Shown one piece after another: positions 1,827 through 60,994 of a DNA stretch of 64,000 bases (the stretch's first letter is position 1; each line of letters begins with the position of its first letter). The notes under the pieces are model-generated. The model was given only the letters and a program-made list of their open reading frames with translations. It ran no database searches and had not been told where the DNA came from. The stretch spans positions 12,381 through 76,380 of the forward strand of contig JACPLB010000004.1 in assembly GCA_016186705.1 (NCBI GenBank). The letters run 5' to 3'. The stretch is from Candidatus Kaiserbacteria bacterium (GTDB lineage: Bacteria > Patescibacteriota > Minisyncoccia > Phycocordibacterales > JABMNX01). The translations under genes and the position numbers were made by a program.

Positions 1827-2642
1827 TTACTCTCCCACAAGTCCGAGACGGTAAATATCAAAAGAGTTCTCCCCCTCAAACATGTCTGAAGGGTTCGGAA
1901 GGTACAGTCGGCGGCGGGTAATTTCTTTCGTCGCATCATTAATGAGCTTGCGGAAGAGAACGAATTCTTCCGCACAGTCTTCAAAATTGATGATGTATCG
2001 GCGCATCTGGGACGAGCCGTCTTTGTTTCTTGATTTTTTGCATTCGTACACGACAAACCGCCGCACTGGTTTTTTAAACGCTTCACGGACGGTGTAATAG
2101 TTAAACATTGCCTGGAGTATGAAGAGTGTTTTCCCTCTCCCGTAGGAGCTCCATGAATCAACGAACTTGTGGTCAATGATGTCAATCGCATTTTGGTCAA
2201 TGCGAGATTGGACAACGAGGTCGGACACGGCTTTGAGCGGAAGCGGAAGCCCTTTTATCTTCGCGAGCGCGTTTATTTCAACTCCAAGCACTTTATGGCG
2301 AGGTGGACGAGCAAGGTAAAATGAAATCGCCTGCTGGTATCCGCGCTCCATACCCGCCCGCTTCATTTTTTTTGCCCGTTTTGACTGCGCTTTCCCAAAA
2401 TTAATCTCAATATCCTGTATGTTTTTAAGGTAGTTAAGTCCAGAAAGAATTGCTTCTTCTTTTGCCACTCCCTTATAAAAATGTTCAAGTGCCACGTGCC
2501 CCGCCCTGCCAATAAAGGACGACGGCGAGGATGGAGTATCGTAGACCCCTTCAACATAGCGTTTGTACCACGCCAAGGGATTCCGCAGAAACGCCATAAG
2601 GGACGAGTAGCTCCAGTGCTCGATGGGAGGTTTCCGTTTCAT
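1827..2642 (-). CDS. PD-(D/E)XK nuclease superfamily protein (Cas4/RecB-like PDDEXK_1 fold, no Fe-S Cys cluster)
   Basis: Begins MKRKPPIEHWSYSSLMAFLRNPLAWYKRYVEG (typical N-terminus of PDDEXK_1 nucleases); IDIIDHK (D-x-K) and QAMFNYY (QxxxY) motifs. The ATG at 2642 was confirmed in the sequence; the ORF track extends further upstream, but that extension carries no start codon with matching features. Confidence 0.6.
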   Translation of the reverse strand: MKRKPPIEHWSYSSLMAFLRNPLAWYKRYVEGVYDTPSSPSSFIGRAGHVALEHFYKGVAKEEAILSGLNYLKNIQDIEINFGKAQSKRAKKMKRAGMERGYQQAISFYLARPPRHKVLGVEINALAKIKGLPLPLKAVSDLVVQSRIDQNAIDIIDHKFVDSWSSYGRGKTLFILQAMFNYYTVREAFKKPVRRFVVYECKKSRNKDGSSQMRRYIINFEDCAEEFVLFRKLINDATKEITRRRLYLPNPSDMFEGENSFDIYRLGLVGE

Positions 2643-2694
2643 TACGCAAAGTATATCCCATGAGATACAGCAGCGAAATGCCGTTTTCTTTCGG

Positions 2695-2734
2695 ACACCT
2701 ATTCTAATGTTCTTAAGAACATTAGAATAGGTGT
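2695..2734. repeat. 40-bp perfect palindrome acacctattctaatgttctt|aagaacattagaataggtgt
   Basis: Each half is the exact reverse complement of the other, checked base by base. It lies between the rpoD stop (2836) and the nuclease ATG (2642). No adjacent T-run, so it is not a classical intrinsic terminator. Confidence 0.9.
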
Positions 2735-2835
2735 AAGCGGACATGTAAACTGACACAGCCGGCTCTCTTGACCTCCTTTTGTTTAGTGAGTTAAAACTAA
2801 AATCTAAAACCTGACAGCTACAAGCTACAAGCCGT

Positions 2836-4107
2836 TTAATAGTTCTTAAGCTGGCTCGCGCGTTCGTGCTGGCGGATTTTCTCAAGTGCCTTTGCTTCAA
2901 TCTGACGGATGCGTTCGCGCGTGACGCCAAATTCCTTCCCCACCTCCTCGAGCGTGTGGTAGATGCCGCTCTCGAGCCCGTGCCTCATTTCAAGAATTTT
3001 CCGCTCTTTCGGAGAAAGTTCGTCAAGAATCTCCCGCACCTGGTCCGCGAGAATGCGGCGTGCGGAGAGCTGGTCAGGCGAGAGAATTTTATCGTCTGGG
3101 ATAAAATCGCCGAGCGTGGATTTATCATCCCCTTCGTCGCCCACGGGACTTTCAAGCGAGACGGTGTCCTGGTTGATTTTTTCAATATTGTGGATTTTTT
3201 CTACGTCAAGCCCCATCTCCGCGGCAATTTCTTCCGGAAGCGGGTCACGCCCGAGGTCCTGGCTCAACTGACGTACTTTCTGCTTATATTTCGCAATCGT
3301 CTCAACCATGTGAACCGGGATGCGAATCGTGCGCGATTGGTCGGCAAGCGCACGCGTAATCGCCTGCCGAATCCACCACGTCGCGTAGGTTGAGAACTTA
3401 TAGCCCTTTGTGTAATCAAACTTATCAACCGCCTTGAAAAGTCCGATGTTCCCCTCCTGGATGAGATCAAGGAGCGTCAAATCAGGGCTCCGCCCGACAT
3501 ACTTTTTCGCAATGGAGACAACGAGACGCAGGTTTGCGCGGGCGAGAAGATTCACCGCCTCCTGGTCGCCTTCGGTAATGCGCTTTGCAAGTTCGCGCTC
3601 CTGCACACCCGTCAGAAGCGGGTATTGTCCGATTTCCCGCAAATACATCTGAATCGAGTCGTACCCTCCGTCCTGCCGTCGATACAGATTTTTCTTGTCG
3701 AGCATGTCCTCTTCGGTTCCGCTTTCAAGAAGCCCTCCGCCCTCAAGCACATCAATGCTTGCGGTGTTGAAACGTTCGTACATATCTTCAAGAAAAAGGA
3801 AATCTTCCTCAATGTGCGGGAACTCTTTGAGAATCTGGTAGTACGTGACGTACCCGCGCTCACGTCCGCGCGCGAGGAGCTGCTCGGCTTTTTGTTCCCG
3901 TGCTTTGCTTTTCCTACCCGAAAGTCCTTTCTCCGAGACTGTCGGTGATTTTTGCATCGACTTCTTCACACCCTTTCGAAGAGTTCTCACTATCGGACCT
4001 TTTTTCTTCGTAGGTTCTCTTTTTTGCCACGCGCGCTTCTTCTTCGGTCTCCGTACCGTTTTCTTGACGCGAACATTTTTAACCGCCTTTTTCCTTTTAC
4101 TTCTCAT
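2836..4107 (-). CDS. rpoD: RNA polymerase sigma-70 factor RpoD, with a Lys/Arg-rich N-terminal extension
   Basis: Regions 2-4 are recognisable ([40 protein letters not shown]; C-terminal [23 protein letters not shown]). It follows dnaG in the classic operon. Confidence 0.95.
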
Positions 4108-4133: not shown

Positions 4134-5861
4134 CTATGCGCCAAGAAATAATTTGAGTTTCTCGGCTATCTCCTTACTTTTTGTGAGTAGCCGGGACGAT
4201 GTCTCCCTATCCTCTCCGGTCTCGGCTTTGCGAAGCGCCGCAATTGTTTCTTCAAGTTCTTTTTGCGTCTCGCGATACGAAAGATAGCGAAGCAAGTCGT
4301 CCACGTCTTCTTTTAGCAAATGTTCTTCTTCATAGAGAAGTTCCGTTTTAAATATATACTGCTCTTTTTCCTTCTCCGCTTTCACACGGAGACTCTCCAG
4401 CGCTTTTTCTCCAATCGCGTTCTTCAGGGCATCCTTGAGAGTCGGAATATCGATGATGGGCTTTTTAAGAGACTCTTGCCAAAGTATGATATGAACGAGT
4501 TTATTTTCGGGAGTGTCACGCGGAGGTATCTTTTCCTTTTTACCTTCTCCGACACGAGATGTCGGCTCCCTAAGTTCATTCCTCAGACGCTCCATACTTG
4601 CTTTAATGACATCTTCGGAGACTCCGACTTCCCGCGCGACCAGCTGTATGAAGTGTTCCCGGTCAATGGCGCTTTTAATTTCAGCAAGAAACGGCAGGAC
4701 TTTTTTCTCCACCTCAAGTTTAAATTTCCTGTCATCGTAGCCGAAGGTCCGCAACTGCGCGAGAGAGAACTCAACAATATGCACCGATTTTTTTATCGCT
4801 TCCTTCCACTTCCGCGGGTCGGCACGCACAAGCTCCGCAGGGTCAACACCCAAAGGGAGGGCGGCAATTTTTACGTCCATACCGAGAGAGAGCGCGAGTG
4901 ACGCACTTCGACCCGCGGACGCGACACCCGCTCTGTCCGCGTCAAACGCCATGACGATATTTTTCGACAGCCGGTTGAGAAGCGTGAGCTGTTCTCTCGT
5001 GAGCGCGGTTCCCGAGACGCCGACCGTATTCGGATAGCCCGCCTGGTGAGCGAGGACAACATCCATCTGTCCCTCAACAAGTATTGAAAAATTGAATTTC
5101 TTAATCGCTCCTTTGGCAATGTCGTACCCGTAGAGAATCCGCGATTTGTTGTACAAGGGTGTCTCGGGGCTATTGATATACTTTGCCGGTACGACGCCGT
5201 CTTTACCCGAGACTTCGGGAAAAATCCTCCCTGAAAAGGCGACAGTGCGTCCCGCACTGTCGCGGATTGGGAACATAATTCTTCCGCGGAACGTGTCGTA
5301 ATGGCGCGCGCCTTCCTTGTGTTCCGCTTTTTTTATCAAACCAGCGTCAAGGAGCTCACGCTCCCCATAGCCGTCTTTCTTCAGATGGTCGTAGAGGTTC
5401 CTCCATTCAGACTCCGCGTAACCGATGGAAAATCGGAGCATTGTCTCATCGCTCACTCCCCGCCCTTGTAAGTACAGCATGACATCTGGATGTCTTTTTA
5501 TTTCATGCCGGTAGAACGCGTCTGCCTTCTTCAGCATGTCGTAGAGCCGCTCGCGCTTGTCACGGGTGTCTTTACTTTCACGCACAAGTTCCACGCCGGC
5601 CTTCTCGGCGAGAATCTTCAGCGCCCCGCTAAAGTCAACTCCTTCCATTTTTTCAACGAACGTGAATATATCTCCGCCCTGGCTTGTCGAGAAACAGTAG
5701 TACATATCGCGCTCCGGCGAAACGAAAAACGACGGAGTTTTTTCGTTGCTAAACGGCGAAAGTCCTTTGTAATTCTTGCCCGCCTTATGAAGCTTCACGT
5801 ACGAAGAAACGACGTCGATAATGCCCAGCCGTTCTTTTATTTGCTCGACAGGTGATGACAT
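4134..5861 (-). CDS. dnaG: DNA primase DnaG
   Basis: N-terminal CHC2 zinc-finger region (...YYCFSTSQGGDIFTF...), Toprim domain (LVEGQMDVV) and position upstream of rpoD. Confidence 0.9.
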   Translation of the reverse strand: MSSPVEQIKERLGIIDVVSSYVKLHKAGKNYKGLSPFSNEKTPSFFVSPERDMYYCFSTSQGGDIFTFVEKMEGVDFSGALKILAEKAGVELVRESKDTRDKRERLYDMLKKADAFYRHEIKRHPDVMLYLQGRGVSDETMLRFSIGYAESEWRNLYDHLKKDGYGERELLDAGLIKKAEHKEGARHYDTFRGRIMFPIRDSAGRTVAFSGRIFPEVSGKDGVVPAKYINSPETPLYNKSRILYGYDIAKGAIKKFNFSILVEGQMDVVLAHQAGYPNTVGVSGTALTREQLTLLNRLSKNIVMAFDADRAGVASAGRSASLALSLGMDVKIAALPLGVDPAELVRADPRKWKEAIKKSVHIVEFSLAQLRTFGYDDRKFKLEVEKKVLPFLAEIKSAIDREHFIQLVAREVGVSEDVIKASMERLRNELREPTSRVGEGKKEKIPPRDTPENKLVHIILWQESLKKPIIDIPTLKDALKNAIGEKALESLRVKAEKEKEQYIFKTELLYEEEHLLKEDVDDLLRYLSYRETQKELEETIAALRKAETGEDRETSSRLLTKSKEIAEKLKLFLGA

Positions 5862-60652: not shown

Positions 60653-60994
60653 TTAGACCTCTTTTTTCCAAAATTGATGTAGTATCTTGCACGGTTCAAT
60701 AATGCGAGGGTCTCTCACCGTATAATACATATTTCTTCCATCCCGCCGCACCTTTACTAGATAATGTGCGCGGAGGATGGCTAAATGCTGGGAAAGGTTT
60801 GCTTTGCGAATCTTAAGGGCCTTTCGGAGTTCTTCAACTGTTAATTCCCTCTTTTTAAGAATATTTAGAATTTCAAGGCGTTTATGATTGGCTAAAATTC
60901 TGTAAATTAAGGCGTTCCTTTCGTACGTTTCTTGCGGAAATGGAGAAAGGTGTTTTATGGCACGTATACTGTTTCGTTTTTTTGCTTTTTTCAT
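60653..60994 (-). CDS. ArsR/SmtB-family HTH transcriptional regulator
   Basis: …LANHKRLEILNILKKRELTVEELRKALKIRKANLSQHLAILRAHYLVKVRRDGRNMYY… (winged HTH of the ArsR family). Confidence 0.8.
   Translation of the reverse strand: MKKAKKRNSIRAIKHLSPFPQETYERNALIYRILANHKRLEILNILKKRELTVEELRKALKIRKANLSQHLAILRAHYLVKVRRDGRNMYYTVRDPRIIEPCKILHQFWKKEV

Follow-up and report, generated by a model that had tools for sequence, protein, structure and literature searches.

An orphan perfect palindrome downstream of rpoD in Candidatus Kaiserbacteria is probably an operator of a small ArsR/SmtB-fold regulator conserved across Patescibacteria

What is a perfect 40-bp palindrome doing between rpoD and a nuclease gene? 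The window, a 64-kb stretch of DNA whose proteins are NCBI entries MBI2618174-MBI2618230 (Candidatus Kaiserbacteria, 91-kb contig), carries at 2695-2734 the sequence ACACCTATTCTAATGTTCTT|AAGAACATTAGAATAGGTGT, two 20-nt arms with 100% complementarity and 0 nt between them. A first-pass annotation had described an exact 20+20 inverted repeat without spacer, located it ~100 nt past the rpoD stop and ~50 nt before the nuclease ATG, and judged it not expected by chance. All of this held: the distances are 101 nt and 52 nt, with all genes on the minus strand, and we calculate that 64 kb should hold about 64000 x 4^-20, or ~6e-8, perfect 20+20 palindromes by chance. Block-shuffled controls (~650 kb) contained no perfect palindrome with arms of 15 nt or longer. 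A half-site search at up to 3 mismatches matched the two arms alone in the 64-kb window, and 100 shuffles yielded none. The locus contains the following features.

1827..2642, minus strand: PD-(D/E)XK nuclease gene, 271 aa (Pfam PF12705, E=4e-11; MBI2618175.1), with its ATG at 2642.
2650..2655, minus strand: -10 element of the nuclease gene, TATACT, 7 nt before the ATG at 2642; leaderless mRNA.
2695..2734, unstranded: 40-bp perfect palindrome, a conserved core plus a 6-bp complementary extension on each side.
2701..2728, unstranded: 28-bp core ATTCTAATGTTCTTAAGAACATTAGAAT, equal to ATTCTAATGTT-CTTAAG-AACATTAGAAT; putative binding site of an ArsR-type regulator.
2701..2706, minus strand: TAGAAT hexamer toward the nuclease gene, a -10 at the regulator locus L228 and a candidate -10 in the window.
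2722..2751, plus strand: candidate outward promoter, TTAGAA (2722-2727), an 18-nt spacer and TAAACT (2746-2751), antisense to the rpoD 3' end; speculative.
2743..2748, plus strand: ATG followed directly by TAA, a possible remnant of a small divergent gene still present in L009.
2836..4107, minus strand: rpoD, 423 aa (Pfam sigma-70 regions 1.1 to 4; MBI2618176.1), last gene of the dnaG-rpoD pair.
4134-5861, minus strand: dnaG.

One proposal of the first-pass annotation was an operator for a dimeric repressor that controls the nuclease gene. The operator part has the better comparative support, in that elsewhere the core brackets a co-varying ArsR/SmtB-type gene; control of the nuclease gains no such support, the gene having its own promoter. 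Nuclease orthologues are ~70% identical across Paceibacterota (hundreds of entries). Of 51 distinct orthologous loci, 45 carry a TAnnnT hexamer 4-11 nt ahead of the ATG, compared with 31 of 435 in a random-position control. The gap measures 6-7 nt in 36 of those 45 loci, and 28 carry a TGn extension. Most Paceibacterota relatives (loci L001-L086) have the form (TGn)TATACT at this distance of 6-7 nt. The conserved hexamer implies that the nuclease gene is transcribed from its own promoter as a leaderless mRNA. The palindrome, centred 72.5 nt upstream of the nuclease start, lies outside this conserved promoter.

The spacer between rpoD and the nuclease gene is highly variable in content and measures 193 nt in the window versus 12-75 nt in many relatives, so that the window holds an expanded, lineage-specific region. 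When orthologous regions downstream of rpoD were compared, as the first-pass annotation had suggested, many proved to lack any hairpin, the rpoD end lying only 10-40 nt before the nuclease -10. The closest locus by nuclease identity (L001, 81%) has a 73-nt spacer without the palindrome, and L009, whose RpoD is 94% identical, has a half-site only. An inversion relative to L001 (CGGCTCTCTT...TTTTGTTT) found no support in the alignment, and an insertion with target-site duplication was rejected, the direct repeats in the spacer (CTTAAGAAC twice, AAACGGC twice) being too short and weak. The spacer also contains a strong Shine-Dalgarno-like AAAGGAGGT (2777-2785, minus strand) with no start codon at a usable distance. 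The short tandem repeat recorded in the first pass is present at 2816-2832 (2.4 copies of a 7-nt unit, TRF score 34); it lies ~82 nt from the palindrome, not 70, and has no evident significance. Downstream of rpoD in another relative (L003:1990-2140), 18-nt arms (CCAAGGTTCAACCTCGG...) ~95 nt apart surround a canonical bidirectional terminator, with a second inverted repeat nested inside as well.

Copies of the half-site were searched in sequence collections. The exact 20-nt arm had 0 matches in genome contigs or metagenome contigs. The central 18-mer, AATGTTCTTAAGAACATT, had at least 120 exact matches in metagenome contigs, which shows that the palindrome is not unique to the window; the exact-arm search came up empty because the outer 6 nt vary across the family. 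The matches listed include 63 distinct 28-bp-core sites, on host contigs of 28 to 59% GC, and about half of the matches carry ATTC(T/C) and (A/G)GAAT flanks, ATTCY...RGAAT not having been part of the 18-mer search pattern. The family core follows the pattern ATT[C/G][T/C]AATGTTCTTAAGAACATT[A/G][C/G]AAT. A search with a 17-mer arm in viral contigs gave 21 matches, which we attribute to chance because none forms a full site.

The family is conserved at its centre and variable outside it. The copy in L177 differs from that in the window only in the outer 3-4 nt of each arm. Complementarity at positions 15-20 from the centre is 92, 80, 75, 64, 51 and 53%, reaching a background of ~25% by position 24. 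Beyond the core the bases vary while the arms stay complementary, leaving a covarying stem of 4-8 bp in family members. The two central bases also vary (TA, TG, CA, GC), with the arms kept. The 64-kb window holds one copy of the family site, and 590 kb of related loci hold none.

The occurrence of the same core at about 60 unrelated loci in other genomes, among the matches listed, counts against the earlier idea of a locus-specific site. Among these matches neither a nuclease gene nor rpoD adjoins any other site, and the suggested recognition site for the neighbouring nuclease found no support; nor did a processing site or the joined ends of an excised inverted-repeat element. Several sites are orphans: the genes on either side converge, canonical terminators lie close by and no ORF points outward. 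The tRNA and Rfam searches around orphan sites returned nothing adjacent.

The 5' ends that face the sites point to a regulator gene. Seven of 40 genes whose 5' end faces a site match Pfam ArsR/MarR-type winged-helix HTH families, and no ArsR/MarR-type HTH occurs among the most-shared families listed for the 52 genes whose 3' end faces one. In a tblastn search with a 92-aa family protein, ~20 loci had the regulator next to the site. For each complete regulator gene examined, an upstream site lies within ~115 nt of the ATG, its centre 17-103 nt away. A second copy encodes the end of the regulator itself: GTT CTA ATG TTC TTA AGA ACA TTA GAA TAA reads VLMFLRTLE*. In L169 this copy instead lies just past the stop codon and the C-terminus is altered; the downstream copy therefore appears to be kept for its own sake. 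Flanking sites were also present at four of four regulator loci found through the protein and not through the DNA pattern (L228, L229/L230, L231 and L232). Seven regulator genes have an upstream site identical to the window core, which for that reason should be a high-affinity site.

The gene order Mur ligase, regulator, rsmI-like TP_methylase is kept in distant lineages (L228:852-3152, L229:8657-10956 and L134:5666-7952), and such conserved synteny implies that the regulator gene is vertically inherited. Some genomes carry several sites within a few kb (L090, L231, L232); in L090, a 14.5-kb metagenome locus, a pair of paralogous regulators and six sites fall within L090:2533-13070, some of the sites being of type ATGTTCTTAAGAACAT and the others of type ACATTCTGCAGAATGT. 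The regulator gene is present in another Kaiserbacteria assembly (L228), and MCR4281154.1 is a Kaiserbacteria member of the family. The 64-kb window itself contains no gene of this subfamily. The only relative there is a canonical 113-aa ArsR/SmtB regulator (60653-60994, minus strand; MBI2618230.1), which belongs to another subfamily, is 31% identical, and has no family palindrome near its gene. The window palindrome reads PILMFLRTLE* on both strands, with no gene body adjoining. A coding sequence running through the palindrome, in a frame open from an upstream ATG, was rejected: homologues begin MKRK, and Pfam coverage starts at residue 9.

Regulator and site also change together, as the following variants illustrate.

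Standard regulator: helix INFKTASEHIRRL, C-terminus ...FLRTLE*; site AATGTTCTTAAGAACATT.
L163: helix VDFRTAGEHMHKL, C-terminus ...FCRTLE*; AACGTTCTGCAGAACGTT in both sites.
L231 and L232: helix SQHITRL, C-terminus ...FCRTLE*; TAGTTCTGCAGAAC in three sites each.
L229: helix AAHVQKL; site AATTCTNGAGAATT.
L087 paralogue: C-terminus ...FIKSFQT; bracketed by two copies of a different 28-bp palindrome, ATCCTTAAATACTGGAGTATTTAAGGAT.
L090 second paralogue: C-terminus ...FIKSFQS; ACATTCTGCAGAATGT sites.

Where the site centre is CTGCAG in place of CTTAAG, the C-terminus has Cys in place of Leu (FLRTLE* to FCRTLE*). These sequences indicate that the C-terminal sequence of the regulator is dictated by the DNA site.

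At 90% identity the regulator family forms at least 787 to 971 clusters. Every one is 88-100 aa long, and members that are named by their source are called Patescibacteria winged-helix or ArsR-family proteins. Pfam HTH_5 matches the regulator with a best E=7e-11, and HTH_24 and HTH_20 match as well; the NCBIfam ArsR/SmtB model scores 53 bits, just below its cut-off of 55. Using phmmer, ArsR-family PDB chains were matched at E=9e-8. An AlphaFold model of the regulator (pLDDT 89.6) has the topology a1-a2-a3-aR-b1-b2-a5, and Foldseek aligned it to CadC, CzrA, HlyU, SmtB, PagR and NolR with TM scores of 0.86-0.89. The predicted structure is thus that of the ArsR/SmtB winged-helix fold. Members of the ArsR/SmtB family bind 12-2-12 inverted repeats at or within the genes they regulate (PMC8790569). 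Positions 2702-2727 of the window form a 12-2-12 inverted repeat, TTCTAATGTTCT-TA-AGAACATTAGAA.

At regulator loci the site coincides with promoter elements. In L228 the right half of the site carries TAGAAT, 8 nt short of the regulator ATG, and the 3' copy places TAGAAT 10 nt before the ATG of the rsmI-like gene; at these distances, the site in L228 itself supplies the -10 of the leaderless promoters. In L126, L179, L091 and L098 an edge motif of the site, TTGGAA or TTAGAA, lies 17-18 nt from a -10, and that -10 is 5-7 nt before the ATG. The site abuts an extended -10 of the TGnTATAAT type in L231 and L232, and TTGACA-17-TATCAT in L135. In all loci with a discernible -10, the site is centred 22-61 nt upstream of the ATG and overlaps the -35 or the -10, a position that, judged from the promoter motifs, is typical of a repressor. 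This autoregulation-type placement was examined in other genomes.

Linkage of site and regulator, their co-variation and the overlap with promoters together suggest that the palindrome is probably an orphan, consensus-perfect operator of an 88-97 aa ArsR/SmtB-fold regulator conserved across Patescibacteria. The regulator would bind the 12-2-12 core at 2702-2727 as a dimer or a pair of dimers. Where the regulator itself is encoded, binding would repress the regulator gene and the next gene (autorepression), as expected from the overlap of the site with the -35 or -10 of leaderless promoters. In the window, the bound protein would cover the two outward-facing hexamers inside the site, TAGAAT and TTAGAA. 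The first could drive a minus-strand transcript that begins near 2693 and enters the nuclease gene after a 51-nt leader; the second, as TTAGAA-N18-TAAACT, could act as a plus-strand promoter antisense to the rpoD end. The bound protein might also stop dnaG-rpoD read-through into the nuclease gene, a block on read-through from rpoD that either the protein or a hairpin could impose. The sequences show that the site belongs to the family, that the family is linked to the regulator gene and co-varies with its product, and where sites lie at regulator promoters; binding itself, whether it represses or activates, and any consequence for the nuclease gene or rpoD are inferred.

Several observations count against an operator. 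No gene of the regulator subfamily lies in the 64-kb window, the palindrome is centred outside the nuclease promoter, and no other site in the set adjoins a nuclease gene or rpoD. Complementarity continues past the core with variable bases, which a double-stranded DNA operator does not need, and several orphan sites have convergent genes on both sides and hence no promoter that they could control. The additional 6 bp paired on each side may have arisen under selection for a hairpin, or the palindrome may have grown outward by template switching, a process proposed elsewhere to perfect and expand inverted repeats (PMC5941160; PMC13100816). Readings of the palindrome as a terminator, a relic, a recombination site, a REP-like repeat or an artefact all rank below the operator.

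The best placed of these is a relic or decoy, a reading that we consider unlikely: the site would have belonged to a small divergent gene since lost, and might still bind the regulator without regulatory consequence. The expanded spacer described above would suit such a loss. On the plus strand beyond the site, an AGGTG-like motif is followed by ATG TAA; L009 has in the same place a 59-aa membrane ORF preceded by GAACATTAGAGTACGAGGTG, though only a half-site; and L017 has a centre-deleted look-alike, ACTATTCCAATAT|ATATTGGAATAGT, at the position equivalent to the window palindrome. From these three observations, the site may once have served a divergent gene that was then lost. The similarity to L009 reaches p of only about 0.01-0.03, however, which makes the homology a weak lead, and all 40 positions of the palindrome are perfect, whereas an unselected relic should decay, as it has in L009. 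The arms of the L017 palindrome match the outer family core (CTATTCCAAT) and the central GTTCTTAAGAAC is absent; it may derive from the family by loss of the centre or represent a separate type of site. Its two copies (L017:1904-1945 and L017:2856-2879) bracket a GNAT acetyltransferase gene.

Less probable again is that the main role is played by an RNA hairpin at the 3' end of dnaG-rpoD, which would terminate transcription in a non-canonical way, stop 3' exonucleases or insulate the leaderless nuclease promoter against read-through; such a role could coexist with protein binding. As RNA, the palindrome folds into an 18-bp stem with a UUAA loop at -25.5 kcal/mol, which is stronger than any other local hairpin in the intergenic gaps scanned in the window, and the region has a folding z of -4.5. 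The position just past the rpoD stop fits, and other long hairpins occur 3' of rpoD in L086, L013, L007, L021 and L079. In related genomes, perfect palindromes number 22 in 11.9 kb of convergent intergenic sequence versus 3 in 11.8 kb of divergent sequence. The covarying stem retained past the core, and the AAAAC and GTTTTGT that flank the downstream copy at the L087 paralogue, point the same way. As the first-pass annotation had remarked, however, this is not a standard intrinsic terminator: no T-run follows on either strand, the terminator scan made no call, and the stem is AT-rich, with 7 of 20 pairs being G-C. Rfam had no match at the window palindrome. Many relatives have no hairpin at all between the rpoD end and the nuclease -10. 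Nor does a terminator explain 28-bp conservation across 28-59% GC, the pairing with a regulator or the co-variation with the recognition helix. A generic hairpin terminator was demoted as the main reading for this reason: the class pattern is real, but the sequence conservation is left unexplained.

More doubtful still is a broader proposal, in which such palindromes are dual-purpose modules special to the ultra-compact genomes of Patescibacteria, each combining an operator for a phylum-wide master regulator, a leaderless -35 or -10 on both strands and a transcript-ending hairpin or roadblock. If this were true, orphan copies between convergent genes would be regulator-gated terminators or insulators, and the site would constrain the regulator C-terminus, as in the change from FLRTLE* to FCRTLE*.

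A site-specific recombination site, dif/Xer-like with an 11-6-11 layout, or the boundary of a mobile gene cassette is very improbable. The core can be read as 11-6-11 (28 bp), and two copies flank the regulator gene, a 183-aa gene in L166 and, in variant form, the GNAT gene in L017. Against this, a dif site is found once on each replicon, at the terminus, alongside a cognate Xer recombinase, which is not the pattern found here; L090 alone packs its six sites of two types into 14.5 kb. No recombinase is among the most-shared Pfam families listed for neighbouring genes, the regulator gene is vertically inherited in conserved synteny, and full symmetry that includes the spacer would leave the reaction directionless.

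We give equally little credence to a selfish palindrome dispersed in the manner of REP or MITE elements, or to an assembly artefact: the core is indeed dispersed over many unrelated loci, which the first-pass annotation would have taken as the mark of a REP-like repeat, and a fold-back chimera would yield perfect symmetry, but low copy number (one in 64 kb, none in 590 kb of related loci), together with the tie to a regulator gene fits a regulon-type operator pattern, the exact 20-nt arm is absent from genome and metagenome collections, the flanks are inverted complements and not direct repeats, so that there is no target-site duplication, and the same core occurs in dozens of independent assemblies, with both flanks in the window running into unique genes. 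A LexA/SOS box, TGTTC-N4-GAACA, was also considered for the operator and rejected, since the ArsR link is direct and neither a lexA nor a recA context turned up.

Other palindromes are frequent in these genomes. About 60 perfect palindromes were found in 590 kb of related loci, and spacer-free forms make up 10 of 21 with arms of 15 nt or longer versus 6 of 103 with arms of 9-11 nt. This excess contrasts with the 4-bp spacer preferred in bacteria overall, according to a survey of 118,019 genomes (PMC13155455). Spacer-free perfect palindromes of 30-50 bp are common in intergenic regions of Kaiserbacteria/Paceibacterota, and some cores are shared between genomes, for example GATATGATATATCATATC, ATTCGCGCGAAT and CCGGCTCGCGCATGCGCGAGCCGG. 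The shared-core palindromes may be operators of other regulators and not plain terminators. At L060:1094-1141, a 23+2+23 palindrome between divergent genes has GGTATAC(T) on both strands and by this token appears to duplicate a -10 in both directions. The positions are given below.

Long spacer-free palindromes: L009:3918-3992, L013:907-956, L017:1904-1945, L034:5138-5171.
Long spacer-free palindromes, continued: L086:1262-1297, L060:1094-1141, L065:3804-3852.
Shared-core palindromes: L048:3790-3830 with L086:1262-1297; L054:2386-2454 and L054:2873-2900 with L071:2705-2734; L035:1823-1846 with L047:3832-3855.

Patescibacteria (CPR) are uncultivated, with tiny genomes and few recognisable regulators. 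Returning to the operator reading, site and protein would form an uncharacterised regulator-operator pair of the ArsR/SmtB kind. Pairing a near-universal small ArsR-fold protein computationally with its DNA site would allow regulons to be predicted in organisms that cannot be grown. An operator that overlaps the stop codon of its own regulator would be a DNA-level constraint that moulds a protein terminus. For the window locus itself the consequence is modest, a candidate effect on the nuclease gene or rpoD.

How does this pair compare with known systems? REP/BIME elements are likewise extragenic palindromes with a conserved core at unrelated loci; the family described here differs in its very low copy number, the lack of a RAYT transposase and its fixed positions around one regulator gene. 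Intrinsic and bidirectional terminators likewise place a strong hairpin just 3' of a gene, many family members adjoin gene 3' ends, and the palindrome, being symmetric, folds identically in transcripts of either strand. Unlike terminators, it has no U-tract and an AT-rich stem, and its apical sequence, which a phylum-level group conserves throughout, is linked with a DNA-binding protein. In the MraZ-rsmH arrangement, a gene for a small autoregulated DNA-binding protein lies by Mur ligase genes, precedes a 16S rRNA methyltransferase gene and heads the division/cell-wall cluster. The likeness to the regulator-rsmI-like locus is a positional analogy only, as the fold is unrelated and a palindrome takes the place of direct repeats.

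The closest parallels are the SmtB/ArsR systems. The associated protein has the same fold as SmtB, CzrA, CadC, AzuR, HlyU and NolR, and a copy of the site lies over the -35 or -10 of the regulator's own promoter, as autorepression predicts. The operators share the 12-2-12 form and half-sites of the TGTTC/GAACA type (PMC8790569). Classical sites read TGAACA-nn-TGTTCA, whereas here the inner half-sites are reversed, TGTTCT-TA-AGAACA. Unlike its SmtB/ArsR relatives, the regulator is minimal (~90 aa) with no obvious metal-binding motif, its palindromes are perfect and extend past the contacted core, and a second operator copy sits within its own last codons and stop.
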